DNA of 64,000 nucleotides from Pseudomonadota bacterium (GTDB lineage Bacteria > Pseudomonadota > Alphaproteobacteria > Rhodobacterales > Rhodobacteraceae): the NCBI GenBank assembly GCA_039195745.1, contig JBCCVD010000012.1, forward strand, positions 39,100 through 103,099, given 5' to 3'. The notes under the pieces are model-generated. The model was given only the letters and a program-made list of their open reading frames with translations, had not been told where the DNA came from and searched no databases. A program made the position numbers and the translations under genes. Each line of letters opens with the position of its first letter. Within the stretch, counting starts at the first letter, position 1. Positions 14,808 through 55,704 of the stretch are shown here, piece after piece.

Positions 14808-15884
14808 ATGGCTGTTTTTGATGCACAGGTTCGGGAATCGCAGGCACAGGTCGAGGAAGCGCAGGCGAAGATTTCAGAGCTGACCAGCCGCATTGAAACG
14901 GCCCGTGCCAAGCTGAAAACCGGCGATGATATCTCCATCGACATCGAAAATGCCTCCCTTGAAGATGTGCATGCGCATACTGAGCTGATGAATGCCAATA
15001 TCGCTGAGTTGATCATGGGGCTCGATGATGTGACCTCCGGCTTTTCCGAAGATTTTAATGCGATGCGCGACAAGACCGGCTGGGAAAGCTTTGTGGGCAT
15101 TTTCTCCAAGGGCAAATCCGAATCCTTACGTCAGGAACGTATGCGCACGGCGTCTATCGACGATAAGCTGCAGGATTTGATCTCCAAATCCGACCAGATC
15201 GTGGCGCTGTTGCAAGGCCAGTTATCCGTGCTCAACGAACAGAAAACAAAGGTTGAAGGCAACCTGACAGAGACCTTGGACGAGCGCGAGATGACGGTCG
15301 GCGAGCTTGAAACCCTGCGCGCAGAGATCCTTGGCATGGACCCGAAGATGATCGAGCTGGAGAATAAAATTTCCGTCGAACAGGACGCCGCCGCACGTAC
15401 GAAGCTTGAGACCGAGCTGGCTGATCTCAACACGAAGTACAACGCGATGGTGCAGGACGAGCAGGTTAAGCTCGCCAAGTCCCAAACGCTGGAGCGCTAT
15501 ATCGAGAAAGGCAAAACCTGGATCGACTCCCTGCAGAACCAAGCCGCGACGCAGATGGTGCTGATCAACAAGCTGGAGACGGACACCAAGCAACGCGTCG
15601 TGCTCTATGATGCCCTGACCAAATCCTTGAAGACCGCCCAGCAGCAGGACGTGGCCCACCAGATCAACGAGATCGGCGTCAAGACGGATCAGGAAGCCCA
15701 AGCCGCCATGGCCGGGATCGGTTCAGCGACGAATGCCCGCATGGCCGAGATGATGGAAGCCCATGAAGACCAAATGGTCTTCGCCCGCAAGGTGTTGGAG
15801 CAGAAGGCCAAAGCCGACGAACGCTTCGCCCGCCGCTTCGAGAAGATTGTAGAGAAGCACGACAAGAACCTCTACGGGGCGTAA
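14808..15884 (+). CDS. Core gene A: 358-aa all-helical coiled-coil protein (TelA-like size and pattern, inferred)
   Basis: Heptad-rich, no TM; host-like codon usage; GAGGGA RBS; amphipathic WESFVGIFSK segment. Confidence 0.8.
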   Translation: MAVFDAQVRESQAQVEEAQAKISELTSRIETARAKLKTGDDISIDIENASLEDVHAHTELMNANIAELIMGLDDVTSGFSEDFNAMRDKTGWESFVGIFSKGKSESLRQERMRTASIDDKLQDLISKSDQIVALLQGQLSVLNEQKTKVEGNLTETLDEREMTVGELETLRAEILGMDPKMIELENKISVEQDAAARTKLETELADLNTKYNAMVQDEQVKLAKSQTLERYIEKGKTWIDSLQNQAATQMVLINKLETDTKQRVVLYDALTKSLKTAQQQDVAHQINEIGVKTDQEAQAAMAGIGSATNARMAEMMEAHEDQMVFARKVLEQKAKADERFARRFEKIVEKHDKNLYGA

Positions 15885-16145
15885 GTGCTTTCGAGGGAAG
15901 CGAAACAATGTCTGACCATCGGTTGTGTCCTTATTGCGATAAGCTTGCTTCCCGGTCTGATCCTTTATCTGTCGTTAACCCATGACATTTGGTTTCCGCC
16001 AGTCGTCGAACGAATTGCCGGTGCGGTGTTTTACTTCGCTTCATTTGTGTTAGGGCTCTTGGGCATCGTTTTTCTAGCAGTCGGAGTCGTGGCGCTTTGT
16101 GTTGCAAAGTTGAAAAAGAAAGAACCCGAGATTGCGGATTATTGA
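15885..16145 (+). CDS. Small 2-TM hypothetical protein (insert)
   Basis: GTG directly after the gene A stop; two hydrophobic stretches, basic tail; AT-richer than core. Confidence 0.6.
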   Translation: MLSREAKQCLTIGCVLIAISLLPGLILYLSLTHDIWFPPVVERIAGAVFYFASFVLGLLGIVFLAVGVVALCVAKLKKKEPEIADY

Positions 16146-16153
16146 AGTTCCAA

Positions 16154-16262
16154 AGCCCGACACTAGCACGCAAGCGCTGAGAGCAGCCCTCGACCGCAGG
16201 CGTCGGGCTGAAAGCCCCCGCCCATGGGGGCGGTCGGGGGCTACCCGGTGTTTCACACCGGG
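16154..16262. repeat. Composite REP-like palindrome cluster
   Basis: AGCCCGAC/GTCGGGCT (16154-16161/16202-16209), GGGCT-GAA-AGCCC, AGCCCCC/GGGGGCT (16213-16242), CCCGGTGT/ACACCGGG (16244-16262). Confidence 0.65.
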
Positions 16263-16277
16263 CGGGAGCGGATTGTC

Positions 16278-16496
16278 ATGAGCGGCACCACAAAACAAGT
16301 GAACCCATTTAGACTCTTCGTTTGCGTAGTCGTCGGAGCAATTAACATTCGACTGGGTTTCGAGCTCTACGATGGCGGATTTTGGTCCTTGCTATTGGGG
16401 GCAGTATTTACCACAGGCGGTGCCGCGTTGATTGCATCCGCGATTTTCATCGCGTTTCGGCGCTCCGTTCGATTGGATATGACGAAAAATGACTGA
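16278..16496 (+). CDS. Small 2-TM hypothetical protein (insert), 72 aa
   Basis: ATG 16278 after GGGAG; two hydrophobic segments; stop overlaps the duplicated gene B start. Confidence 0.55.
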   Translation: MSGTTKQVNPFRLFVCVVVGAINIRLGFELYDGGFWSLLLGAVFTTGGAALIASAIFIAFRRSVRLDMTKND

Positions 16497-16532
16497 AGAC
16501 CTCAACCTCACCGTCGATCACGCGGGCATCAC
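16489..16532 (+). repeat. 44-nt direct repeat, truncated copy of the 5' end of core gene B
   Basis: 42/44 identical to 16958-17001 (ATGACTGAAGACCTCAACCTCACC[G/A]TCGATCA[C/T]GCGGGCATCAC); reads MTEDLNLTVDHAGIT then diverges to a stop at 16588-16590. Confidence 0.92.
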
Positions 16533-16589
16533 TTTTGTAGTAGGGTCAGGATTTGAAGCCTGGCGCAATTGCCCTCTAAGGAGAAGTTA

Positions 16590-16961
16590 GTGCTGCGTTT
16601 TATAAGTGGGCTTGTATGTGCGCTTTTGGGGTGGATCGCAGTGTCTGCAATCTATTGTTTGACCATGCTTGTGGTCGCTCTGCCGTGGTTCGCATCTGCA
16701 ATTCTCGCGATGATACTGACCGACAATGACACCATCCGACTGTTCATTATGGCGCCCGCAACGCTATTTCTTTTCATCTTTTTCTTCTGGTTCGCGTCAC
16801 GCTTCGTGTTGGCGGGGTTCTTCGGAATATGGGGCATGGCGGGATTGGTGTTCCACAAGAGCGCTGACGTGACGCCCTCCCGCATCGCCAATTTTCTAGT
16901 CGAACGCGCACAGCTGATGCGAAGCGATTTAGTGTGGTACTTTTCGAAGGTTAAATCATGA
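16590..16961 (+). CDS. 3-TM hypothetical protein (insert), about 123 aa
   Basis: GTG 16590 with AAGGAG at 16578-16583 (track start 16569); strongly hydrophobic; ATGA overlap with gene B. Confidence 0.65.
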   Translation: MLRFISGLVCALLGWIAVSAIYCLTMLVVALPWFASAILAMILTDNDTIRLFIMAPATLFLFIFFFWFASRFVLAGFFGIWGMAGLVFHKSADVTPSRIANFLVERAQLMRSDLVWYFSKVKS

Positions 16962-18088
16962 CTGAAGACCTCAACCTCACCATCGATCATGCGGGCATCA
17001 CGGATGACCTCGCGGCCCGCCGTTACTTCGCGAAGTTCGAGCGGATCACAGGGCATCTCGCCCGGGTGGCGGCTGAGATGGAGATTGAGCGCACGTTCAG
17101 CAAGCGCGATGTGGATATCATCGCGGGCTATGTGGCACGGATCGCTTATACCTTCCGCGCGCTCAGCCATAAATATCTGCTGACGGGCCGTGACACGGGG
17201 CAGTTTTTCGGCTCGCTCACCATCGACAAGAAGGAAAGTGGTTTTCCCGTTTTCTCGGAACTCATGACCATGGCCAATGATGCGCAACAGGCCGAAAAGC
17301 ATCTGGGCGGCATGCGCAGCAAGGAAGATATCAAGGACGAGATGATCCGCCAGATTGTCGGCGATCTGACAATCCCGACCAAGCTGCAATTCGCACTGTC
17401 ACAACGGATGTATTACGAGCAATTGCAGCTTGGCGATTTGTTCTGGGCCACCAATGATGCGCAAGCGCTTTGGACTGGTAACCTTGATAATCGCCGCACC
17501 TATCTGCTGCATTGGGCTGTTTACGATTCGCGCCAGAATGTGCCGACCATCTATCTGATGGATATCGAGGATTCCGGCGACATCGCTCTGCCCAAAGACG
17601 CCCGACGCTGGCCCTCTGTGCAGGCGCATCTGACCGCACAAGGCTCGAACGGGCTGAAGCTGTTGACCATCGCGCAGGGTTTTGATCGCGACTTTGACGA
17701 TCTGCACCCCAAACGCCTGCGCCGTATCCATGTGGGCCCGATGTACAGCCACGCCTTCACACATCAGTCCGGTCCGATCCGCGACGTGCTGGCCGAGGCG
17801 CAAGGTGCGCAGGGCGAAGACTGGACGCTGGCTTGGACGGTCGAGACGCTGGAATCCGAGCGCGTCGAGATGGAGAAGAAAGGCTGGTTCGGCTCGGTCG
17901 AGCGCGAGATCTTCGCGCTCGATCCCTTTGCCGGGCGCGGCGCTGAGACAGGTGCGACCTCAACCGAGCGCTCCATCATCATGCCCACGCGCCCCTATCA
18001 GGTTCTGGCCGAGAAAAACCCGGCAGGTTTCGCCAATATCCGCAAATTCGTCGTCAGCCCGGCCGGCCGTGTCGTGAGCTACAGGTAG
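16958..18088 (+). CDS. Core gene B: 376-aa soluble protein of unknown function
   Basis: Long ORF with host-like GC3; no motif recognised. Confidence 0.8.
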   Translation: MTEDLNLTIDHAGITDDLAARRYFAKFERITGHLARVAAEMEIERTFSKRDVDIIAGYVARIAYTFRALSHKYLLTGRDTGQFFGSLTIDKKESGFPVFSELMTMANDAQQAEKHLGGMRSKEDIKDEMIRQIVGDLTIPTKLQFALSQRMYYEQLQLGDLFWATNDAQALWTGNLDNRRTYLLHWAVYDSRQNVPTIYLMDIEDSGDIALPKDARRWPSVQAHLTAQGSNGLKLLTIAQGFDRDFDDLHPKRLRRIHVGPMYSHAFTHQSGPIRDVLAEAQGAQGEDWTLAWTVETLESERVEMEKKGWFGSVEREIFALDPFAGRGAETGATSTERSIIMPTRPYQVLAEKNPAGFANIRKFVVSPAGRVVSYR

Positions 18089-18107
18089 GGTGGGCAATCT
18101 GCCCACC
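18085..18107 (+). repeat. GTAG-type REP element
   Basis: GTAG followed by GGTGGGCA-ATC-TGCCCACC (perfect 8-bp stem); its TAG is the stop of gene B. Confidence 0.7.
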
Positions 18108-18124
18108 GTTCAAAGGAAAAACAC

Positions 18125-20059
18125 ATGACCCAATCCGCCGATTTCATGGAATTGAAAGAAGACGACATCCGCGGCCATTACGCTGCCGCCACAGCCATGC
18201 TGGAAGGCGTCGATCACACGCCGCGTATTGCCAAGGCGAAGGAGGCGCCCGCGCAGGAGCGCTCCAGCGGGATCGGAACACGGCGCAGGTTTCGCTCTAC
18301 CACGCCGGGGCTGGTGACGCGCTCAACCGCGCGGCCCGAAGGCGTCAAGCTGATCGACCGGATCGAGGGGATTGGCGAGGACACGCTGCCCTCCGCTTTG
18401 CAAGCCACGACCCTGCAAGCCTTGCGCCGCGCGCTGGCCATCGCGCTGGAAACCGGCGCGCAATTTGCCGAGGCCACGGGATTGGCCGAACTGAAGCGAG
18501 AGAATCTCGAAGGTCGCCTCTCGGACGCCAAGAAGGCCGAATTCACCGATCTGCTCGCCGCCGAAGCGCTGGCCAGCCTGCACACATTCGCCAACGCCAC
18601 CTCCCTGTTGCTCAGCACCCAAGCCACAGAAACCACGGTGGAAATCGGTGCGGTCGAGGAAGTCCTGACTGACAATGCCCAACTCGCCCTGCACGGCGCT
18701 TTGTGGGAGCTTGATCAAGACCTGGCCCTTTTCGCAGATGACGATGCCAAGATGATCGCGACTGTTCTGTCCTTCACTGAACAGCTGATGGAGAAAGCCG
18801 CTTTGCGCGCTGCCAACACGCCCAGGCTAGAGCCGTTCAACACCGCCTCCTACCGCGTGGAGGCCGACGACCTGACGATCAACGGCTTCACCCCGGCGCG
18901 CGCCGCCAAGGGTTCCAAGCTGACCATGACCTTCAAGAAACCCAACGAGGTCGTCGGCAACCACATCGCCAAGTATCAAGCCATGAAGCTCGCCAAGATG
19001 CTGATGGCCTATGATTTCGACCGCAAGCTCAACCCCTTTGCCGAACTCGGTGGCTTCATCTTCACCTTCATGGGCGACGGTGCGCCGGGAACAGGGAAAA
19101 CCACGCTGATCCAAATGATGGCAGGCCTGATCTCCGGCTATTGCGAGACGGCTGGCTATGCTTTCCGCTACCAGAACCTGTCCACCGACAATATTGACAG
19201 CTATCAGGGCAAGTCCGGCCAGAACGCCAAGGCCTTCATCAACAATGTCATCGACCCGAACGTCATCGGGTTTGGGACGATTGACGATATCGACCAGCTT
19301 GCGGGCAAGCGCGGCGACCGGCAATCCTCGGCGGGTCAGTTGGAGATCACCGCTGTACTCATGGAAAGCTTCGCCGGTGCCAACACCGTTGTGCGCGGCA
19401 ATTGCACGTTCGGCATGTTCTCCAACTACCCCGAAAATGTCGATGACGCGCTGCGCCAACGGGCAGGCGCCCGCTTCCTGGTCGACGGGCCGCAAACCCG
19501 CGACGACTATGTCGATATTCTCAACCTGCTGATGGGCAAGAACCACGACATCCCCTTGGGCGATTTCGAGCCGTTTGCCGCGCAAGAGATCAAGAAAGCC
19601 GTCGCCGCCAGCTTTGAAAGCCATGGTAAACCGCATGAGGAAGGCCTGCTGAAAGTCTACGAAAAAGTCTCAAACGAGATCGGCGAGCTGAACACGATCA
19701 ACAAGCTCGGCACCTATCTCAAAGGCATCCAGGAGGCCGACCATCGCTTCACCGGCCGCGCCATCAAGAACATCACCGACGCCGTCAAAGTCCGCGCCAT
19801 GGATTTCGAGCTGCCCGATGAATGGATGGAAGAGCCCGACCTGTTTCTGTTCAAATCCTATGACGAGAAAAAGGGTATGATCGAGGAGCTGCGCCAGCCC
19901 ATCACGGTCGAGATGGTGATCCAGGAAATCAACCGCTACGCCGATTCAGAATTCCGCTACGCCGACAAAAGCGACGAAGTCGCGATTGCGAATATGGTGC
20001 GCGAATACGGGCTGACAGAGCAGGCGAAAAAGCGGTATCTGGAGAGTAAGGGTTCGTGA
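18125..20059 (+). CDS. Core gene C: AAA+ ATPase with a long unknown N-terminal domain
   Basis: Walker A GAPGTGKT, Walker B-like FGTIDDID, sensor-1/SRH FSNYPENVDDALRQRA. Confidence 0.9.
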   Translation: MTQSADFMELKEDDIRGHYAAATAMLEGVDHTPRIAKAKEAPAQERSSGIGTRRRFRSTTPGLVTRSTARPEGVKLIDRIEGIGEDTLPSALQATTLQALRRALAIALETGAQFAEATGLAELKRENLEGRLSDAKKAEFTDLLAAEALASLHTFANATSLLLSTQATETTVEIGAVEEVLTDNAQLALHGALWELDQDLALFADDDAKMIATVLSFTEQLMEKAALRAANTPRLEPFNTASYRVEADDLTINGFTPARAAKGSKLTMTFKKPNEVVGNHIAKYQAMKLAKMLMAYDFDRKLNPFAELGGFIFTFMGDGAPGTGKTTLIQMMAGLISGYCETAGYAFRYQNLSTDNIDSYQGKSGQNAKAFINNVIDPNVIGFGTIDDIDQLAGKRGDRQSSAGQLEITAVLMESFAGANTVVRGNCTFGMFSNYPENVDDALRQRAGARFLVDGPQTRDDYVDILNLLMGKNHDIPLGDFEPFAAQEIKKAVAASFESHGKPHEEGLLKVYEKVSNEIGELNTINKLGTYLKGIQEADHRFTGRAIKNITDAVKVRAMDFELPDEWMEEPDLFLFKSYDEKKGMIEELRQPITVEMVIQEINRYADSEFRYADKSDEVAIANMVREYGLTEQAKKRYLESKGS

Positions 20060-20340
20060 ACAGGTTCAACTTCGCGACGAGTTTCTATCCTCAAGCAGAT
20101 GAAAAACCCTTCCATTTTGCGGAGCGGTATCAGGGCGGCATAACTTACGATCCAATTCCCAAATGCGACGTCAATGTTGCCTGTATGTTTCCCGAAATGG
20201 CGTTTGCACCGCCCATGTTTCATCTCTTTATCAGCGCAGCGACCGTGCTCACTGTGTTGGGCTTGAGCGTCGTGCTATGGCTGCTAGCGCATGGCTTGCT
20301 CGGCGCAAAGCGGCTGCACATGAAGGTCGTGAGACAGTGA
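20056..20340 (+). CDS. Possible small protein with C-terminal TM (insert or relic)
   Basis: GTGA overlap with the ATPase stop; hydrophobic MFHLFISAATVLTVLGLSVVLWLLAHGLLG; N-terminal half looks atypical. Confidence 0.35.
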   Translation: MNRFNFATSFYPQADEKPFHFAERYQGGITYDPIPKCDVNVACMFPEMAFAPPMFHLFISAATVLTVLGLSVVLWLLAHGLLGAKRLHMKVVRQ

Positions 20341-20605
20341 CCTTCGATACCAAACATCTTTCCAACCCTGTGCGCTTCGCATCGGAAGACAGCGTCAGAC
20401 CGGGGGGCGGCGATCTGAGGGTGCTTCGATCACACAAATCGCCAGTCCTCTCGGGCGGTCTGCAATGCCCACGGTCTGAAAATCGGGCATGTACTGCTGG
20501 TTGATAGCTGACCAACCTGCCTTTGGCTCAACTGTCTTGAATGACCGCTATCATATAGCTCCACATTTTTTATACTGGATTGGGATGGGAAGTGGAGGAG
20601 CTCGT

Positions 20606-21424
20606 ATGACCAGTTGGCATCTAGACGAAACCCATCTGACATCGGCTGGATCGGTCGCTGCCGGTCGCACAGGTGCCGGACCAGACCTCGTGCTGGCGCA
20701 TGGCTGGCCTTGGTCGTCGTATTCCTGGCATCGCGTTATTCCTGAGTTGGCGAAGTCCTTTACCGTTTACTGGTACGACATGCCTGGCTACGGCAAATCG
20801 AGTAAATCAAAAAACCAACGGACGTCGCTGGATGTCCAAGGTAAGGTTTTCGCGGAGCTTCTAGCGCTTTGGGGTTTGTCGAAACCAAGAGTGGTCGCGC
20901 ATGATTTCGGCGGTGCAACGACGCTCAGGGCGCATCTTTTGCATGGATGCGAGTTCGAGCAACTGCTGCTAATGAACGTAGTGGCAATGCGTCCCTAGGG
21001 ATCGGATTTCTTTGATCATGTCGGGCGACATGTCGATGCCTTTCAGGGCTTGCCACCCCATATCCACAAGGCGGTGGTTGCGGCCTATATCCAAGGTGCA
21101 TTGGTCAATGACATTCCTGTTGAGGATTTTGATGCCTTGGTCGCTCCATGGCTCAATGAGGATGGCGCGACGAGCTTCTATCGCCAATTTGCTCAAGCAG
21201 ACGAAAGATATACAGAAGAGGTCGAGGCTCAGTTTGGCGATGTTCGCTGTCCGGTGAAAATCGTTTGGGGTGAAGATGATCCATGGATACCGCTCGACAG
21301 AGGCAAAGCATTGCATCAGCTCATGCCCAAAGCTCAGTTCGTCACCATCCCCGGTGCGGGCCACATGCCCCAACTCGAAACTTCGGAAACAGTCCTGAAG
21401 GAAGTGTTGAAGTTTTTTAAGTAA
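20606..21424 (+). pseudogene. Alpha/beta hydrolase (Asp-nucleophile, epoxide hydrolase/dehalogenase-like) interrupted by one in-frame TAG
   Basis: ATG 20606 after GGAGG; AHGWP, AHDFGG, WGEDD, GAGH motifs; TAG at 20996-20998 in MRP*GSDFF, same frame open to 21424. Confidence 0.85.
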
Positions 21425-21589
21425 ACCCAAATCACGGAAAGCAGACTTTTGGGGCACGGTGCAGCATCGATCAAAGTGGACCCAAAAGCCGACGTTAGCG
21501 AAAAACGGAAACGGCTTCGGTTTAAGCCACGTTCCTTGCGTAACACTTTCCGTTAAAGCTATGCTCGCGCCTGTAAGTATGGGGGGCGC

Positions 21590-22219
21590 ATGAGAGCATC
21601 GAAACACGTCTGGCGCATCGCTTTGATGGCGCTGGTAGGGCTTTTGGGCGGGGCTTTTGCAGCAGCCTTAACTCTGCAAAGCTCCGACCTTTTCAGCTTG
21701 ATACCGCCGCCGACGGAGCTCAATCCGAACCCAGCCGCTGACGTCACGCCTGACCGCATCCTCAGCCTTTATCAATCCGCCTTCACCGCTTGGGCCGCGC
21801 TTGTTCTGTTGGTTCCGGCCTATATCTTCGTGTGGTTGCGCACGCATGATGCCGCGTGGTTGGCGTTTTGGACGACGAGCTACATCGCCTATGTGATCCA
21901 CCTCTATGTCTCTGCCTTCTGGTTCTTCGAAGGGGATTTCGAGGCCATGACCACCTCCTCCCGCGTGTCAGCTTTCTTGCCGGGCATGGCCGTCCTGATT
22001 TGGTGGGGCGTCGATGTGGTGATTGGATTTGCCAAGATACATGCCACATGGGTCACCGTGCAGCGTGTCATTGTGCATCTGCTGGTCTTTGTCCTCTTCG
22101 TCGGCGGATCAGCGGTGAAGGGAGAGACAGGATTGATTCAGCTTATGGGCTGGGCGCTGTTTGGTGCCGGTGTGGGGGCGACGGGTGTCGCTTCCCTCAA
22201 CCTTCGCAGGGCCGCATGA
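21590..22219 (+). CDS. Multi-TM hypothetical membrane protein (insert), 209 aa
   Basis: About six hydrophobic segments; ends in an ATGA overlap. Confidence 0.75.
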   Translation: MRASKHVWRIALMALVGLLGGAFAAALTLQSSDLFSLIPPPTELNPNPAADVTPDRILSLYQSAFTAWAALVLLVPAYIFVWLRTHDAAWLAFWTTSYIAYVIHLYVSAFWFFEGDFEAMTTSSRVSAFLPGMAVLIWWGVDVVIGFAKIHATWVTVQRVIVHLLVFVLFVGGSAVKGETGLIQLMGWALFGAGVGATGVASLNLRRAA

Positions 22220-22599
22220 TGGCCGCTCTTTTCCTTGCATCCGGCTGGTGCCTTGCAGCATAAGGCGCGCTTTTGGGGCGTTGGCGCGTGGGACGACTGG
22301 CGTTTAGGCGCGAAGAGCAGTCTCCAATCTACTTTCAAATGTCGCTCTTGATCACCTGTGTCGTCTGTTTCGGCATTGAATTGCGACGATACAGCCCGAA
22401 CGCGTTGTCAGTACGAACAGCGGTAGTGGTCGAGATGCTGATCGGTGTGGGTCTTGCGCTATTTTTGGTACATCAGAAACTTGCGAATAACGACAAGTCT
22501 TTCGCGGGCGTTGCCAAGGCTATCTTGTATCGCGGTCTGGGCGCTGAGCAGAGGCTGCGCGAATTCCTGTCTTGCCTGCTTCACACGGGTCGCGCATAA
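22216..22599 (+). pseudogene. Decayed ORF whose first 29 codons match the 23562 gene
   Basis: From 22219 MAALFLASGWCLAA*GALLGRWRVGRLAF versus MAALFLIVWIIPAAWGAFSGYWRAARPAL: 15/29 ungapped, TAA at the Trp position; frame continues open to 22599. Confidence 0.6.
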
Positions 22600-22651
22600 A
22601 GCACGTTGCGTTATTGCGCTTTAAATTGACTATGAGTTATCTGAGAAAAAG

Positions 22652-22999
22652 ATGAGTTCAGAAAATTCGCTCGGATTACTGATTTTACTTCTGGGTTTTC
22701 CTACGTTCCTGAGTGTTGCGGGCATATTGAATTTGTACTTTCGACGCGGAACGGCAACTTTTCTCTATTTGGGAACCGTAGTTCTGGCATTGCCTCTGGT
22801 CCTTTCTATGCTGGCCAATCTGTTTGCTGGGCCAAATGGTTCGATGGGCTCAGCGATCGCTGGTATTCTTTCGATGCCATTGGCGTTGGGAAGCGTTTGT
22901 TGTTTCTTCATAGCCACATTTATTGGAAGCGCACGCATTCCGAAATCTGAGTTCATAGCCTTGGTCGTTGCTGTGGTTGCAGTCATGTTGATGATTTAA
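22652..22999 (+). CDS. 4-TM hypothetical protein (low-GC insert), 115 aa
   Basis: Nearly all hydrophobic; one sampled 60-nt line is 40% GC versus 60% for a sampled line of the ATPase gene. Confidence 0.65.
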   Translation: MSSENSLGLLILLLGFPTFLSVAGILNLYFRRGTATFLYLGTVVLALPLVLSMLANLFAGPNGSMGSAIAGILSMPLALGSVCCFFIATFIGSARIPKSEFIALVVAVVAVMLMI

Positions 23000-23561
23000 G
23001 CCTTTTTTGCAGCGGCTACTTCAAATAATGCGCTGTTGTTGGCTGTTACTGGGGTCTACAGATTGGCATGAGTGTTAACCTATTGCTGTGCAAGTCGCAG
23101 CTCTGCGCATCCTTGTCTTAATCGCGCGTGCCTTCTGAGGCGCGGTGTTTTTGCAAGACTGCAACACGCTATCACTTCATCCACCCCCGACAGGCGCTTA
23201 GCCGTCTTCCGCATCGGATGCGTCGCTGGACGCGGTCTTTTCATTTCAAACCTTCGGTGCCATCGTTTGGTCAGCGTGCATTTTGCTGATTTGTGCTCAA
23301 AGCACGGTTTGAGTGTCCGTTTTTCGGTCCTGCGAGTTCATCGCCCGTCGGAACAGTTCAGGGGGAGGGCGCGCTCGGCCTGGGAAAAGCACATGCCAAT
23401 GAGATCAGAGGGTTAACATGCACCTGCTCGGTTTGGACCCTTTGCTGGCAGTGGTCGCGAAGCGGAGGGCGGCATTGATGCGGATGGTGGAGTGGGCTTT
23501 ACTATGCGCGGGCATCGCTGCACGTGCTGTGTCTCCTCTCAACCGAAGGAAGCTTGTGTAA

Positions 23562-23885
23562 ATGGCTGCGTTATTTCTCATCGTCTGGATCATTCCCGCC
23601 GCCTGGGGTGCCTTTTCCGGCTACTGGCGCGCGGCGCGGCCGGCGTTGAACCTTGGGGATTTTTCCAAGGATATCGGCATTGCCTTGATGACGGCCGCAG
23701 CGCCGATTTTCATGTTTCACATGGTCTGGGTTGGCGCGTTCATGGAAATGACGGGGGGGCTTTCTGCGCTGGGCTCCTGGGCGTGGTATTGGTCCTGGCT
23801 GACCGCGCTGATCTGGTTCCCGCTGATGGTCATCGCCTATATCTGGCGGGCAATGAAGATCAAGCGGGGGGCGCGGGGTTTGTGA
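23562..23885 (+). CDS. Trp-rich 3-TM hypothetical protein, 107 aa
   Basis: Hydrophobic segments, host-like GC; GTGA overlap with the next ORF. Confidence 0.7.
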   Translation: MAALFLIVWIIPAAWGAFSGYWRAARPALNLGDFSKDIGIALMTAAAPIFMFHMVWVGAFMEMTGGLSALGSWAWYWSWLTALIWFPLMVIAYIWRAMKIKRGARGL

Positions 23886-24241
23886 CCCTGCATGTCGCCT
23901 TTTTTCTGATCACCTTGGTTGTCCAGTTTCTGCTGGTCCATGTCATGACGACCCGCGCGTGGTTCCCGCAGATCCCCGTTGTGCCAGCCGCCATCGGGCA
24001 GGGCGTGTTGACCTTGATCGCCGTGGCCATTGCGGGCGGGTTTGTGTCTGGGATGCTCTGGTTCTCTCTGATTGCTTATCCGATCCTGTATTCCTGGGCC
24101 TTTGCGCCGGACCCGGACATGACGCAAAACCTGCAAGCCATGCAGGAAAATCGGGGCATTGTCTTCTTGCTTGTGATGTCCCCATATTTGTACATGCTGA
24201 TCCAGCTTTATGCCCGCATGATCGAACAGCGCAGAGCATGA
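23882..24241 (+). CDS. 3-4 TM hypothetical protein, 119 aa
   Basis: GTG 23882 overlapping the previous TGA; C-terminal half of track ORF 23492..24241, whose upstream part is a shadow of the 23562 gene. Confidence 0.65.
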   Translation: MTLHVAFFLITLVVQFLLVHVMTTRAWFPQIPVVPAAIGQGVLTLIAVAIAGGFVSGMLWFSLIAYPILYSWAFAPDPDMTQNLQAMQENRGIVFLLVMSPYLYMLIQLYARMIEQRRA

Positions 24242-24377
24242 GGTTGGCAGTCCTTCAGGAATGGCGATACAGTGGCGGCAGGCAATGTTTCTTGGGTTAA
24301 CATCTGGTAAATGAAATTTTGAAACCTTATATATATCATATGGTTAGTAAAATCCCCGCATGCGGGGCGTCCCGCTG

Positions 24378-25718
24378 ATGATGCGGCTCATCCAAAAAGG
24401 GTTGATGTATGGCAACCTGTTTCATGTCAGCTCACCGGCTTTGGTGGAGCGCTATAATCGCGCGCTCAAGCACCTGACCGGCAAGACCACGGGCCTCACG
24501 GATTTTCACATTGATATCGCAGGCTACGCACCCGAGGTCGGCGAAGAACTGGGCGATCATCTCTATATCAACCCGCAGGGCTGCAACCGGCAGTTCATCT
24601 TGCTGTCGACCGAGCAAAAGACAGCGCCGCTTCTGGATGCGAAATTCTCCACCAGCCGCGGGATTTTGAGGCAGTTCATCGAAGAAAACGAGGCGCAGCT
24701 CTTCGCTTTGACGGCGCGCGATGCGGTTGCGGGCGAGCTCGTCAATTCGATCTATACGGTCACGAAAGCGGCGCATCTGTTTGATATTCGCAAAATCAGG
24801 ATCGAAGCTGACACCACGGGCGGCCATGTGCGGGAGGCGGAGAAACTGGGGGCGATGATCGATGAATTCCGTACCCGCGACGATGCCTGGTGGGACGACG
24901 TTCTGATCGCAGATATGATCACGCTGGCCAAGAAAACCGGCGATGTGACCCGCGTGCCGATTGGTCTTGATCAGACCGAATATGAGCAACAGAATTTCTG
25001 GACCTCCCATTTTGGCGGGCTCTACGCCTTCCGCGATGTGAAAACGCCCGCGACAATCTGTGTGGGCGAGAAAGAGGCCGTTGGCACTCTGCCCACGGGG
25101 GAGACCATCGGCTTTGATGAATCCAACAAGATCGCGGCGTTTCTTGAACAGAACGATCTGGTAGAACCGATCGTCAAAGCAAAGGGCGTCAACTCCATCG
25201 ATATCCTGCGTCAGAAGCTCGACTTCATCATCGTCGATGTCGCGGCCACGATGGATGCAGATCTGACAGGGCTGCGTCGTTCTGATCTGCGTGGCCTCGC
25301 GCGGCGCTACGCGAGCTTGCTGCCGCAGGAGTTTCACCAGCTCAACGATCTGCTTCGCTGGGCGGAAGGCGGTGGTGGCTGGCCGCGGATCACCTCGAAA
25401 GACCCGGCCTATTTCTACACCTTACGCGCCACGAACCACAAAGACCGTGACCTTGTGAACCAGCTGCTGGCAGAGCTTGCGCCCCTGGATGTGCGTCAGC
25501 TTTTCATCTGTCACAAACAGCTCTTCTATGACCGCTACGCCACGTGGCCGGAGGAAAAGAAGGAATTCGTGGCGAATTTTCTCGAACGCGAGTATCAGGT
25601 GGACAAGGCGGGCGCGCGCGAGGCGCTGTTTGGACATGAAGATGCAATGGAAGAACCGCAGCCGGTCGATATCGTGGATGTGGTTGGTCCTTGGGGCGCG
25701 GTGAGGAGAGGGCGATGA
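24378..25718 (+). CDS. Core gene D: DUF6638-like protein
   Basis: N-terminus MMRLIQKGLMYGNL..SPALVERYNRAL recalled as a Rhodobacteraceae DUF6638 start (from memory, not searched); 446 aa, soluble. Confidence 0.7.
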   Translation: MMRLIQKGLMYGNLFHVSSPALVERYNRALKHLTGKTTGLTDFHIDIAGYAPEVGEELGDHLYINPQGCNRQFILLSTEQKTAPLLDAKFSTSRGILRQFIEENEAQLFALTARDAVAGELVNSIYTVTKAAHLFDIRKIRIEADTTGGHVREAEKLGAMIDEFRTRDDAWWDDVLIADMITLAKKTGDVTRVPIGLDQTEYEQQNFWTSHFGGLYAFRDVKTPATICVGEKEAVGTLPTGETIGFDESNKIAAFLEQNDLVEPIVKAKGVNSIDILRQKLDFIIVDVAATMDADLTGLRRSDLRGLARRYASLLPQEFHQLNDLLRWAEGGGGWPRITSKDPAYFYTLRATNHKDRDLVNQLLAELAPLDVRQLFICHKQLFYDRYATWPEEKKEFVANFLEREYQVDKAGAREALFGHEDAMEEPQPVDIVDVVGPWGAVRRGR

Positions 25719-25984
25719 TCCTTGGCATAATCAGACTGTCGGTCGTGGCCTTCTTCGTCATGCTGTTAGTCTATTTCGTTTTGTCCTGGTGGTCGCGGTC
25801 CGTGCGCCGCAAGAAGCTAGGGATCGAGTGGGATGAAGAGATCAAGGCAGGCGACCGCGAGGCCTTCATCGAAGAGGGGCTGGAAGATTATGACGGCTCC
25901 CTCCGCCGCAAGCTGATCATGGGCGTGTTCATCGTGCCCTACATGGTGATTGGCGTTTTGGTCTACGTCGTGAATTTTCAATAG
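25715..25984 (+). CDS. Core gene E: 89-aa 2-TM protein with acidic loop
   Basis: ATGA overlap with gene D; GAGGAG RBS; host-like codon usage. Confidence 0.75.
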   Translation: MILGIIRLSVVAFFVMLLVYFVLSWWSRSVRRKKLGIEWDEEIKAGDREAFIEEGLEDYDGSLRRKLIMGVFIVPYMVIGVLVYVVNFQ

Positions 25985-25996
25985 GGGAGCAGACCC

Positions 25997-26686
25997 ATGC
26001 ATTACATCAAACGCGCCTTTTGGACCGTGTTCTGGGTCCTGCTGATCGTCTTCCTGCATTACACGCTGCCACAACGCGATATCGCGCGTATCGTCGAAAC
26101 CGAAGTCCGCCGCGTCGATTTCGGAGAGAACTCCATTTTTTGGGCCGGCGCCGATACGGGCCAAGATGGCACGGGCGTGAACCGCGACATTCGGTTTGTG
26201 AACACCGTCCGTAAGACCACTTATCTGTTCGGCCTGATCCAGACCGGTCGGGAACGCCCCATGGTCTACCGCAACGAGGACACGGGCTGGGGCTGGCCGC
26301 CATATTTCAAATTGGATTCATCAAATTTGCAGACGGAAATGGCGGATAACAAAAGCACTGCAAATGATCCGCAATGGGTTGTGTTGACCCATTACGGCTG
26401 GCGCAATGAATTCCTGTCGATCTTCCCGAATGCTGTAGGGGTCCGACCGATTGAAGATCCAAACACTCGGCTTATACCATATTTCAATATCCTCATTCTG
26501 ATCATACTTGCAGGCCTGATGCTTGGTTTCTACCGGCTCACCCAATGGTTCCGCCGCGAAAAGATTGACCCGATTGTGGATAGCGCATCAGAGAAATGGG
26601 ACGGCGTCGATGCCTATGCGGATGAGAAACGCGCGGGGTTCCGCGGCTGGCTGGATAGCTTCAAGGGTAAGAAAAAGCGCTATTAG
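25997..26686 (+). CDS. Core gene F: DUF1523-like membrane-anchored protein
   Basis: FLHYTLPQRDI, MVYRNEDTGWGWPPYFK.DS.NLQ, YGWR.EFLSIFPNA; N- and C-terminal TMs. Confidence 0.8.
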   Translation: MHYIKRAFWTVFWVLLIVFLHYTLPQRDIARIVETEVRRVDFGENSIFWAGADTGQDGTGVNRDIRFVNTVRKTTYLFGLIQTGRERPMVYRNEDTGWGWPPYFKLDSSNLQTEMADNKSTANDPQWVVLTHYGWRNEFLSIFPNAVGVRPIEDPNTRLIPYFNILILIILAGLMLGFYRLTQWFRREKIDPIVDSASEKWDGVDAYADEKRAGFRGWLDSFKGKKKRY

Positions 26687-54774: not shown

Positions 54775-55704
54775 TTAGCCGCGCCCCCGTGGATGGGCAT
54801 CGGCGTAGATCTCCATCAACCGGGCTGTGTCGACAGCCGTATAGGCTTGTGTCGTGCTGAGCGACGCATGACCCAGCAACTCTTGAATAGCGCGCAAATC
54901 GCCTCCCGCTTCGAGCAGATGGGTCGCGAAGGAGTGGCGCATCGCATGAGGCGTGGCAGTGGCAGGCAGACCAAGCTGGTGTCGTGCATTTTCCATCACT
55001 TTTGCAATCATGCGGCTGTTCAGTGGCCCGCCGCGCGCGCCCCGAAAGAGCAGATCGTCAGGCTCAAGCTCAAAAGGCAGGGCGCGTGCATATCGCGCAA
55101 CGGCGTTTCGCGCAGCCTCAAGAACCGGTATGATCCGTTCTTTGCCGCCTTTCCCCGTGATCCGCAGAACGTCGGGCAGGGGGGCGTCTTTTGCCTTCAG
55201 GCCCAATGCTTCAGAGATCCGTAATCCGCAGCCATAAAGCAGCGTGACAACAGCCACGTCGCGCGCTGCAATCCAGCCGGTGCGCGATTGTATCTCCACG
55301 GTTTCCAGCACGGCAATCGCGGCATCTTTCGCCAATGGTCGCGGCAATTTCTTTTGAAATTTAGGGGAGCGCGTGGCCAGGACTGCTGTCGGATCAAACC
55401 CGTCACGTTCAGAAAACCAGCGGTAGAAAGATTTCACGGCGGACAATTCCCGCGCCAAAGACCGGGCAGAGATACGACGCCCGCGCTCATGCGCCATCCA
55501 CGCCCGCATATCCATCGGCTTGAGCCGCTTTAACGGGCCAAGCCCCGTCGCCTCCCCAAAATGCTGTGTCATGAAGGCCAGAAAGCCGAACACATCATGG
55601 CGATAGGCCTCAATCGTGTTCTCAGCCACCCCGCCCAGTGCAGAGAGATGTTTTAACCAAAGTTCTGTGAGGTCCCGGGCAGCAGGTGAGATCAGCCCAA
55701 CCAT
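54775..55704 (-). CDS. xerC: Tyrosine recombinase XerC
   Basis: LLYGCGLRISE, GKGGKERIIP, TPHAMRHSFATHLL, LGHASLSTTQAY; follows DUF484. Confidence 0.9.
   Translation of the reverse strand: MVGLISPAARDLTELWLKHLSALGGVAENTIEAYRHDVFGFLAFMTQHFGEATGLGPLKRLKPMDMRAWMAHERGRRISARSLARELSAVKSFYRWFSERDGFDPTAVLATRSPKFQKKLPRPLAKDAAIAVLETVEIQSRTGWIAARDVAVVTLLYGCGLRISEALGLKAKDAPLPDVLRITGKGGKERIIPVLEAARNAVARYARALPFELEPDDLLFRGARGGPLNSRMIAKVMENARHQLGLPATATPHAMRHSFATHLLEAGGDLRAIQELLGHASLSTTQAYTAVDTARLMEIYADAHPRGRG

Follow-up and report, generated by a model that had tools for sequence, protein, structure and literature searches.

The locus raises the question of what a crowd of small membrane-protein ORFs, interleaved with the larger genes of an operon and read from the same strand, represents. 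We refer to positions in the window, which is the whole 64,000-nt stretch of DNA analyzed. The locus was compared with those of 20 congeneric species, 80 other roseobacter genomes and 80 metagenome contigs (~180 loci).

Two variable slots in a conserved operon

Two junctions in an uncharacterized, conserved roseobacter operon are hypervariable slots for small membrane-protein genes. The six core genes encode a coiled-coil protein, p376, an AAA ATPase, DUF6638, a 2-TM protein and DUF1523, and share 45-95% amino acid identity over ~180 loci (Table 1). For instance, cc358 is 72-96% identical in 75 of 80 roseobacter loci, the single-copy ATPase is 65-85% identical in 134 of the 300 genera sampled, and the DUF6638/DUF1523 block matches PF20343 and PF07509. 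The core lies among ordinary chromosomal genes, and the operon would have been inherited vertically in roseobacters. We designate as slot 1 the interval between the coiled-coil gene and p376, and as slot 2 that between the AAA ATPase and DUF6638. Slot 1 measures from -13 to 1203 bp across loci, and slot 2 from 19 to 2361 bp in other loci and 4300 bp in this genome, the largest slot pile-up among the ~180 loci compared. Unlike the slots, the p376-to-AAA spacing is constant across loci, and the DUF6638-to-DUF1523 spacing (~270-290 bp) is constant in nearly all of them.

Similarity to relatives is lost at, or only a few bases from, the ends of the core genes (at 15877-15890 for cc358). Slot genes differ between sister species, and slot 1 is alignable in only four species pairs of the genus. 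Altogether, 226 slot ORFs were grouped into 143 clusters, with 115 singletons, and the ORF families were restricted to one slot. Of 45 loci, 39 place the start of the slot-1 ORF at -4 to +8 nt from the cc358 stop and 36 place its end on the p376 start; 95% of slot-1 ORFs have a higher AT content than the core. Relatives' slots also hold defence or conflict genes, co-oriented and directly after a core gene: a TIR protein in the same genus (L024), Mrr (L059, L120), DUF2971 (L064, L103) and the toxin-antitoxin genes ParDE (L040) and Phd (L066, L076). The polymorphic cargo between fixed core genes proposed in the initial annotation is borne out by the slot lengths, contents and breakpoints of these relatives. 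Since none of the collections searched holds a strain-level relative (the closest ATPase is 92% identical among genomes and 80% among metagenomes), events in the window are not datable and donors cannot be named.

Table 1. Core genes, slot genes and relics of the operon in the window
Feature	Position	Strand	Remark
cc358, core, coiled-coil protein, 358 aa	14808-15884	+	stop is left border of slot 1
tm86, 86 aa, ~3 TM, ORFan	15885-16145	+	GTG start abuts cc358 TAA
GC-rich palindromic spacer between tm86 and tm72	16176-16266		nested hairpins
tm72, 72 aa, 2 TM	16278-16496	+	stop overlaps ATG of p376-start relic
Insertion scar	16489-16590	+	p376-start copy, read on as 33-codon relic
tm123, 123 aa, 3 TM	16590-16961	+	AAGGAG ribosome-binding site; ATGA coupling to p376
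p376, core	16958-18088	+	with ATPase, fixed block between slots (16958-20059)
AAA ATPase, core	18125-20059	+	PF00004; with p376, fixed block between slots
tm94, 94 aa, one C-terminal TM, ORFan	20056-20340	+	GTGA overlap with ATPase stop
Alpha/beta-hydrolase pseudogene, non-membrane cargo	20606-21424	+	one nonsense codon
tm209, 209 aa, 4-5 TM	21590-22219	+	vertically inherited slot 2 resident in clade
tm107-start relic and ORF o108	22219-22599	+	o108 (22273-22599) continues relic frame
tm115, 115 aa, 4 TM, ORFan	22652-22999	+	most AT-rich insert
tm209-type pseudogene, degraded second copy	23091-23552	+	ends TAAATG onto tm107
tm107, 107 aa, 3 TM	23562-23885	+	present in 12 of 20 congeners
tm119, 119 aa, 3-4 TM, ORFan	23882-24241	+	GTGA overlap with tm107 stop
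DUF6638, core	24360-25718	+	right border of slot 2
tm97, core	25691-25984	+	block 24360-26686
DUF1523, core	25997-26686	+	block 24360-26686

Slot contents in the window

The seven small multi-TM ORFs listed earlier are all present on the + strand at the starts given, each with two to four hydrophobic spans in a Kyte-Doolittle scan (19-residue window, threshold 1.6). Their stop/start overlaps also read as described: TAAGTG at cc358/tm86, ATGA at tm123/p376 and tm209/relic, GTGA at AAA gene/tm94 and tm107/tm119, and TAGTG where the TAG of the 33-codon relic, whose ATG is overlapped by the tm72 stop, meets the GTG of tm123. The inserts had been said to resemble each other little, and at BLASTP E<1e-4 they form separate clusters or singletons. 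Some had also been called AT-rich; their GC content is indeed lower (tm115 46%, tm86 47.5% and tm123 51% versus 59% in the ATPase), but the quoted 40% is not reached over a whole ORF. Their density is not equal throughout the genome: small ORFs with at least two TM occur at 0.031 per kb per strand in this 4.3-Mb genome, and the seven within 7.7 kb here are its densest cluster, the next containing five.

In slot 1, searches of 5.8 billion proteins and 180 related loci gave no relative of tm86 (codon score 0.16), which with its start at 15885 is also absent from the public protein collection. tm72 (codon score 0.13) is found there with the same start as a singleton cluster and has no match in related loci. 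The spacer between these two ORFs has a 91% copy on contig C5 and an 88% copy in slot 1 of L039. The first 44 nt of the insertion scar match the p376 start (16958-17001) at 42 of 44 positions. tm123, also called in the public collection, is 51% identical in amino acids to a slot-1 gene found in L025 and L027 only (dN 0.41, dS saturated).

Slot 2 begins with tm94, for which no true relative was found among 1.8 billion representatives. Its positions 20073-20104 are ~88% identical to 21166-21206 of the hydrolase pseudogene, with the frame shared, and on sequence grounds tm94 is a chimera derived in part from a hydrolase gene fragment. The pseudogene matches Pfam Abhydrolase_1/6 on each half and, in one frame, is 69% identical over 271 aa to an intact L074 gene located elsewhere; a TGG-to-TAG change at 20996-20998 falls where the homologue has Trp. 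tm209 is 75-76% identical in amino acids in L038, L040 and L041 and 31-54% in others, with a dN/dS of 0.15-0.17 and a dS equal to that of cc358. The relic at 22219 opens with 35 codons of a decayed tm107 start (16 of 35 identical, stop at codon 15); DNA homology to L038 spans tm209 into this relic and ends at 22268, and the codon score of relic and o108 is 0.10. tm115 (GC3 47%, codon score 0.05) has no relative among 5.8 billion proteins. The tm209-type pseudogene is 26% identical over 199 columns, with four in-frame stops and a ~45-residue deletion, and its last 21 nt match the 3' end of L038 tm209. The relics noted earlier are real; four lie among the intact genes, namely the p376-start copy, the tm107 5' relic, the tm209-type pseudogene and the hydrolase.

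tm107 is present at 42-90% amino acid identity in 12 of 20 congeners (dN/dS 0.07-0.17). In profile-profile comparison it aligns co-linearly with family F0 (48-70% probability, E 2e-4 to 4e-5), the invariant P and WxP lining up, and 28 of the 29 genomes having both encode F0 directly downstream of the ATPase. tm107 is probably the genus's form of the widespread F0 family, a companion of tm97 and DUF1523, and hence probably an ancestral, fast-evolving part of the operon's membrane module and not a cassette. The view of all inserts as cassettes therefore probably does not extend to tm107. tm119, without a relative among 5.8 billion proteins, has native-like codon usage (score 0.38, GC3 0.75), and it is missing from the corresponding site in L022, L038, L040 and L041. 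It was also compared with the 79-aa family F1, of which it is not a member.

Taken together, tm123, tm209 and tm107 are proven genes, and purifying selection has been demonstrated for the three. tm86, tm72, tm115 and tm119 are lineage-specific, probably dispensable membrane peptides, and tm94, which has just one TM and is the eighth ORF, belongs with them. The ORFans are presumably expressed.

Recombination traces and competing explanations

The non-sister species L025 and L027 are 84% identical at the nucleotide level in the core and 97% in the slot-1 cassette, which lies inside a ~2-kb recombination tract of 88-98% identity. Gene ends are duplicated in this genome and in three others. In the window, the tm209/tm107 junction is duplicated and its two copies have decayed reciprocally; no recombination tract is visible around the 5' end of p376. 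L040 differs from L041 by a 430-bp insert, a replaced ATPase 3' end and a ~24-nt flanking imperfect direct repeat, and L089 holds a displaced 100-nt relic of the ATPase 3' end. The duplicated ends and the 2-kb tract suggest that cassettes are swapped through homologous recombination and stacked through homology-facilitated illegitimate recombination. Transformation or a gene transfer agent may be the vehicle; a GTA_TIM protein (E 1e-146) is encoded in the genome, and RcGTA moves ~4.5 kb fragments that are integrated by allelic replacement (PMC9690577).

We consider it reasonably probable that the slots of this conserved operon turn over by swapping and one-sided stacking, with this genome as the extreme case. 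In most genomes a slot would contain no more than two small genes, promoterless and in the orientation of the operon, whose translation would be coupled to that of the core genes; most of their products would be 65-135 aa proteins with 2-4 TM. In swapping, crossovers in the conserved flanking genes would replace the cassette by two-sided homologous recombination. In stacking, recombination would be one-sided, homologous only where it is anchored in a core gene and illegitimate at the opposite end, so that a donor cassette is added beside the resident and the end of the neighbouring gene is left behind as a short extra copy. Other bacteria's copies of the same operon would serve as donors. In this genome, slot 1 would have gained cassettes at least twice and slot 2 several times, and redundant copies would then have decayed. 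The lack of homologues for tm86, tm94, tm115 and tm119 is awkward for import from other operons, yet half of the slot ORFs are singletons.

The strongest competitor would have the slot genes serve as swappable functional modules of the core machine: they would supply a conserved defence or conflict system with effectors, immunity proteins or specificity subunits, and diversifying selection, not neutral turnover, would keep them variable. The initial annotation had likewise suggested that the membrane proteins could be specificity or receptor modules of that machine. It draws on the defence-type genes of relatives' slots, on the tight two-sided coupling in most loci and on the slot-specific families; moreover, TM proteins, TIR proteins, nucleases and hydrolases together recall the effector repertoires of modular defence systems. 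We regard it as unlikely, because the single-copy core, with its wide distribution and ordinary surroundings, is unlike patchy defence systems, both slots are empty in some genomes (L067, L074 and L075), several inserts here are pseudogenes or chimeras, an immunity role finds no toxin partner, and PADLOC returned only a generic AAA match on the window proteins.

Less probable still, and in our view doubtful, is the birth of the ORFans in place, whereby whatever lands in the operon would be transcribed and, through coupling, translated, T-rich stretches would readily give hydrophobic ORFs, and the slots would thus generate de novo or extremely diverged membrane peptides with no gene import. TM proteins are known to emerge from T-rich non-genic sequence in yeast (PMC7005711), and the coding strand here is T-rich (AT skew -0.2 to -0.4 across the slots). 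In addition, four ORFs lack a homologue in billions of proteins, tm94 visibly joins a hydrolase fragment to unknown sequence, and tm86, tm72 and tm115 have marginal codon scores. However, multi-TM ORFs of such length almost never arise by chance: in 300 dinucleotide-preserving shuffles, counting ORFs of >=70 aa with >=2 TM, slot 1 averaged 0.03 against three observed and slot 2 averaged 0.19 against five, and 0 of 300 shuffles reached the observed number in either slot. T also accumulates at the second codon position of the predicted frames, the codon usage of tm119 is fully native, and the scars and the L025/L027 tract document the movement of ready-made cassettes.

The shuffles also weigh against the proposal that the unconserved tm86, tm72, tm94, tm115 and tm119 are chance or decaying frames in junk DNA. 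Missing homologues, low codon scores for some and the decay proven nearby by the relics would fit it, but every ORF has a better codon score in its predicted frame than in the other five, the overlapping junctions have been retained, and independent gene calls in the public collection include six of the ORFs, which makes it very improbable. Insertion by an integron-like or other site-specific system at defined attachment sites, as the initial annotation had entertained, is highly improbable: the array of promoterless, co-oriented cassettes and the repeat around the L040 insert recall one, but window cassette borders show no recurring inverted or direct repeat except copies of neighbouring gene ends, the repeats vary from event to event as pieces of local genes, the nearest tyrosine recombinase is ~30 kb away, and neither an integrase nor an Rfam or attC-like match was found at the locus.

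Relation to known systems

The likeness to orphan immunity arrays that had been suggested earlier is upheld for the process, by the duplicated or displaced neighbour ends here and in L040 and L089, but not for content, as the locus has no toxin gene. In the Vibrio cholerae T6SS orphan immunity and Rhs/CDI C-terminal displacement arrays, small co-oriented genes likewise lie beside conserved machine genes; for the T6SS arrays, a model of homology-facilitated illegitimate recombination predicts such duplicated or displaced ends (PMC5361080). A homologous anchor in a conserved gene with an illegitimate other end, relics of old gene ends, and clean replacement by ordinary homologous recombination are shared as well (PMC5361080). 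In contrast to those arrays, no effector gene or evidence of an immunity role accompanies the small proteins here, two separate slots occur in one operon with inserts translationally coupled to the core, and the inserts are mostly ORFans and not copies of modules intact elsewhere.

Integration and defence hotspots similarly place variable, often AT-rich accessory genes between conserved flanks, and relatives' slots carry defence-type cargo of that sort. However, the cargo in the window consists mostly of tiny coupled membrane ORFs without a match to a known defence family, and its flanks are genes of one uncharacterized machine instead of unrelated housekeeping genes. Integron arrays share the promoterless co-oriented cassettes, upstream promoter and high turnover but have IntI, attI and attC, all missing here. 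Small membrane partners also accompany coiled-coil stress proteins, as PspB/PspC do PspA and LiaI does LiaH. Here too, a long coiled-coil protein shares its operon with small TM proteins, but the slot proteins are hypervariable whereas the Psp and Lia partners are conserved, and cc358 gave no PspA/IM30 Pfam match, only generic coiled-coil fold matches.

For the operon itself, the tight coupling seen almost everywhere, and slot-1 products of much the same size and topology, could instead point to one functional, very fast-evolving subunit. Since both slots are empty in some relatives, the small proteins are not required for the core as such.

Conserved core genes and variable junctions

The window covers C12:39100-103099 of a 4.3-Mb roseobacter-type genome. 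Few roseobacter gene sets are better conserved than the six core genes of its operon. The entire core was found in 20 congeneric species, mostly with 70-95% amino acid identity (down to 57% for DUF1523), as well as in 80 metagenome contigs and 80 other genomes spread over many roseobacter genera, where the lowest median identities, ~45%, belong to DUF1523 and the 2-TM protein tm97. The AAA ATPase occurs as a single copy with 65-85% identity in 134 of 300 sampled genera of the family. The gap between p376 and the ATPase mostly measures 10-140 bp, while that between DUF6638 and DUF1523 is constant near 280 bp. Translation of tm97 most likely begins at 25715, where an ATG shares bases with the stop codon of DUF6638 (ATGA), the TTG at 25691 being the less probable choice. 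An aldehyde dehydrogenase gene, oriented against the operon, lies two genes beyond DUF1523 in the window. Structural comparisons of the core proteins were little informative: the predicted model of cc358 is poor (pLDDT 62) and matches generic coiled coils only, that of DUF6638 (pLDDT 74, pTM 0.71) has no PDB match at E<0.4, and PDB sequence searches for the ATPase module returned nothing but fidgetin-like and i-AAA matches.

Core genes, slots, relics and other annotated elements of the window
Feature	Position	Strand	Remarks
cc358, coiled-coil protein	14808-15884	+	core gene
Slot 1	15885-16957		cc358 to p376
Hairpin element	16176-16266		between tm86 and tm72
p376-start copy, 44 nt	between tm72 and tm123		42/44 identical
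p376	16958-18088	+	core gene
Classical AAA ATPase	18125-20059	+	core gene; PF00004
Slot 2	20060-24359		AAA ATPase to DUF6638
Alpha/beta hydrolase	20606-21424		one frame; single TGG-to-TAG nonsense codon at 20996-20998
Decayed tm107 start			coupled to tm209 via ATGA
o108	22273-22599		ORF in which the frame of the decayed tm107 start continues
Degraded second tm209-type gene	23091-23552		ends TAAATG onto tm107
DUF6638	24360-25718	+	core gene
tm97, 2-TM protein	25691-25984	+	core gene
DUF1523	25997-26686	+	core gene
Tyrosine recombinase	54826-55278	-	PF00589, 123 bits

The initial annotation had proposed that cassettes accumulate between fixed core genes, and alignment with relatives (loci designated by L-numbers) bears this out: the inserts turn over at two junctions, with variable slot lengths, sharp breakpoints, differing sister species and scars. 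In relatives, slot 1 measures between -13 and 1203 bp and slot 2 between 19 and 2361 bp, as compared with 4300 bp in the window, the largest slot 2 seen. DNA homology to relatives breaks off only a few bases from where the core genes end, and both slots are practically empty in three genomes (L067, L074 and L075). Altogether 226 slot ORFs fell into 143 BLASTP clusters, 115 of them singletons, and families are restricted to one slot with one exception. Within the genus, sister species on the core-gene tree carry different slot-1 genes, and slot-1 DNA could be aligned in just four species pairs. In Ruegeria atlantica, too, slot contents differ, at 86-89% nucleotide identity. When all loci are taken together, 95% of slot-1 TM ORFs have a higher AT content than the core genes beside them (GC 50.1% versus 57.7%). 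Of 45 loci, 39 have the ORF starting -4 to +8 nt from the stop codon of cc358, and in 36 it ends on the start of p376. As to closer relatives, the clusters at 90% identity were all singletons except that of tm107, metagenome contigs reached at most 80% ATPase identity, and no strain-level relative was found in the collections. In three loci (L032, L034 and L038) slot 1 measures 386 bp, with no ORF longer than 43 aa. Its identity in the comparison of L032 with L038, two distant species, is 83% and exceeds that of their core genes (74%), and it may represent a conserved non-coding element or RNA.

Small membrane-protein ORFs and relics

All seven small multi-TM ORFs named in the initial annotation are present in the window with the junctions described there: tm86, tm72 and tm123 in slot 1, and tm209, tm115, tm107 and tm119 in slot 2 (numbers give length in aa). 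A Kyte-Doolittle scan found 2-4 hydrophobic spans in each, and gene calls in public collections use the same start for six of the seven and for tm94, a 94-aa single-TM ORF following the ATPase; tm86 alone lacks a record of its GTG start. When dinucleotide-preserving shuffles were scored for ORFs that reach 70 aa and have a minimum of two TM segments, slot 1 held 3 against 0.03 expected and slot 2 held 5 against 0.19. The predicted frame of every ORF has the top codon score of all six frames, with T enriched at codon position 2. The locus is also the densest cluster of such ORFs in the genome, with 7 in 7.7 kb compared with 0.031 per kb per strand genome-wide, so that their density is far from equal throughout the genome. 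The second densest cluster of the same genome, at C13:112988-117810 (-), has five on one strand. As had been noted, some of the ORFs are AT-richer, with GC contents of 46% (tm115), 47.5% (tm86) and 51% (tm123) versus 59% in the ATPase. By codon score, tm119, tm107, tm209 and tm94 are native-like; tm86, tm72 and tm123 score marginally, and both tm115 and o108 are atypical.

The ORFs differ widely in their distribution. tm209 and tm107 are 75-90% identical to orthologues in four relatives (L022, L038, L040 and L041), with dN/dS of 0.07-0.17 and the same dS as cc358; both are residents that this clade has inherited vertically. Homologues of tm123 (51%) are confined to slot 1 of L025 and L027. The genes tm123, tm209 and tm107 match only genes of the same slot, none of which adjoins a toxin. 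Searches of tm86, tm115 and tm119 against 5.8 billion proteins, and of tm94 against 1.8 billion representatives, returned the query alone, and tm72 had no match among the related loci. None of the small ORFs scored above cut-off in Pfam, NCBIfam or PADLOC scans, and all-against-all hhalign comparison of slot families and window singletons found no pair at or above 40% in the order run. An iterated HMM search had placed tm119 in the 79-aa family F1; this assignment was rejected as an artefact of an alternative frame of tm107, direct profile comparison giving 0.25% probability. An Rfam scan of 14-28 kb was without matches, and promoter and terminator scans did not find clear internal signals.

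Probably not every member of the array is a cassette. F0, a family of ~110-aa proteins with 3-4 TM segments, is the most frequent slot-2 gene of other genera; of 29 sampled genomes with F0 and the ATPase, 28 have F0 directly 3' of the ATPase. F0 also occurs in ~17 sampled genera without the ATPase; DUF6638 is absent as well in the five checked. Two such genomes were inspected (L202:3820-5097 (-) and L204:4880-6223 (+)), and both have the order YkuD (transpeptidase), F0, small ORF, DUF1523 and aldehyde dehydrogenase. Since F0, the small ORF and DUF1523 are kept without the ATPase and DUF6638, the operon of the window looks as if a soluble module had been joined to a membrane module of greater age. 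In hhalign, the tm107 family matched F0 with 70% (E 4e-5) and 48% (E 1.8e-4) probability, falling below 40% in the reverse-order run. The match is co-linear over ~100 columns and aligns an invariant Pro and a Trp-x-Pro of both families, and the position of tm107 downstream of the ATPase agrees with F0. With moderate confidence, tm107 is probably the genus's form of the old membrane module F0-tm97-DUF1523 rather than a cassette. In a genome of another genus (G138), a partial second F0 copy (44 aa, C-terminal; C36:89596-89727 (-)) lies just past the full slot-2 copy and is probably another displacement relic.

Four relics are interspersed among the intact slot genes. Apart from its nonsense codon, the hydrolase gene is 69% identical to an intact homologue in another genus, located elsewhere in that genome (L074); either it became a pseudogene very recently or the stop is a sequencing error. 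Because tm94 includes ~41 nt copied from inside this hydrolase with the frame kept, it is a chimeric frame. We correct the annotation of tm94, o108, the degraded tm209-type gene and the hydrolase to relics. Cassettes do accumulate in this locus, but at least one member, tm107, is probably an old operon gene and several others are relics. Between tm86 and tm72 there is a GC-rich element of ~90 nt with nested hairpins, which recurs with 91% identity on another contig of the genome (C5:9158-9226) and with 88% in slot 1 of a congener (L039:3129-3219); it may be a small palindromic repeat that moves along with inserts.

Proposed swapping and stacking by recombination

Two modes of change can be read from the alignments. 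The non-sister species L025 and L027 have core genes that are 84% identical, yet their slot-1 cassette is 97% identical in nucleotide sequence, within a raised-identity tract of ~2 kb that extends into cc358 and p376; such a tract points to clean swapping of the cassette. The second mode is additive. The duplicate of the p376 start would be expected if a donor fragment carrying tm123 and the start of p376 had entered one-sidedly: the fragment would recombine homologously within p376, and its other end would form an illegitimate junction 44 nt inside the resident p376. Around the 5' end of p376 in the window no donor tract was found, identity to all congeners being flat at 71-82%. In slot 2, the tm209/tm107 junction is duplicated and the two copies have decayed reciprocally, which fits the same course of stacking.

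Comparable scars occur in relatives. Relative to its close relative L041 (94% nucleotide identity), L040 has a 430-bp insert directly after the ATPase, whose final ~17 nt are replaced, with an imperfect ~24-nt repeat of local intergenic sequence at both insert ends. In L089, a 100-nt relic of the ATPase 3' end is displaced behind two newer cassettes. The junction repeats are always pieces of neighbouring genes. Taken as sequence features, the scars in the window, L040 and L089 bear the signatures of homology-facilitated illegitimate recombination, namely one-sided homology and a short duplication or relic at the join. This process has been proposed for the orphan immunity arrays of the V. cholerae T6SS and for Rhs C-terminal displacement (PMC5361080). 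A GTA_TIM protein is encoded in the genome, and one published account (PMC9690577) describes RcGTA-type particles as carrying ~4.5 kb fragments that are integrated by allelic replacement; a GTA may have been the delivery vehicle of the cassettes. The best explanation, which we hold with somewhat better than even confidence, is that recombination swaps and stacks small genes for membrane proteins, translationally coupled and for the most part dispensable, at two junctions that tolerate them.

Slot cargo in relatives and the possible role of the operon

Slots of relatives contain several recognizable genes. A TIR-domain protein in slot 2 of the congeneric L024 (L024:6929-7561 (+)) starts at the ATPase stop, as does one of the Mrr nucleases found in slots of L059 and L120 (L120:11931-12848 (+), slot 2). 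DUF2971 proteins occupy slots of L064 and L103, a ParDE toxin-antitoxin pair lies in slot 1 of L040 (L040:3249-3824 (+)), Phd antitoxins occur in L066 and L076, and a GNAT and a thioredoxin-like protein were also found. All of these are co-oriented with the operon; L077 has a Hint-domain protein on the opposite strand. The slots therefore behave like small-scale hotspots where accessory and selfish genes settle.

The main rival to swapping and stacking of dispensable genes sees the slot genes as exchangeable modules with a function in a conflict-related machine. The cargo menu resembles the swappable effectors of modular defence systems, but against a defence role of the whole operon the core is highly conserved and single-copy, lies in ordinary chromosomal surroundings and has empty slots in some genomes, and we regard this alternative as unlikely. 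In its most elaborate form, to which we give slightly less credence still, the operon would be a chromosomally fixed conflict or membrane-surveillance machine with a conserved AAA motor and partners, and the two slots would be exchangeable output or specificity positions in which TM proteins, TIR, Mrr, hydrolases and toxin-antitoxin genes serve as alternative modules via translational coupling. If so, the stacked array would be a record of successive module changes.

Among known systems, a core-flanked defence or integration hotspot shares with this locus an interior that varies among related genomes between conserved, syntenic flanks, and known defence or selfish genes in the slot of some relatives; it differs in that the window cargo falls outside known defence families, PADLOC matching none of the small ORFs. 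The suggested likeness to orphan immunity arrays of polymorphic toxin loci stands for the process only: displaced gene-end relics mark successive additive insertions in both, whereas the window members match no immunity genes of complete modules, and Pfam, NCBIfam and PADLOC scans of the locus found no toxin domains. Integron-like accumulation, also suggested initially, was not upheld, because unlike an integron the array has neither an adjoining IntI-type recombinase (none among ORFs scanned from 9.8 to 30 kb) nor a recurrent attC-like palindrome at each cassette border. The nearest tyrosine recombinase, ~30 kb downstream of the array, is probably of the XerC/D type, and inverted and direct repeat scans for attC-like sites found only a palindromic element at 16185-16242, without an Rfam match, and copies of neighbouring gene ends.

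On our preferred reading of swapping and stacking, the locus shows through readable scars how promoterless genes are exchanged and accumulated within a conserved operon without an integrase. It offers a natural system for operon reshaping by homologous and one-sided illegitimate recombination, perhaps GTA-delivered, and for the origin and persistence of putative ORFan membrane peptides whose translation comes free by coupling. It is equally a natural system for asking what the AAA/DUF6638/DUF1523 machine does; slots that draw TIR, Mrr and toxin-antitoxin genes in relatives hint that this machine is linked to conflict or membrane stress.
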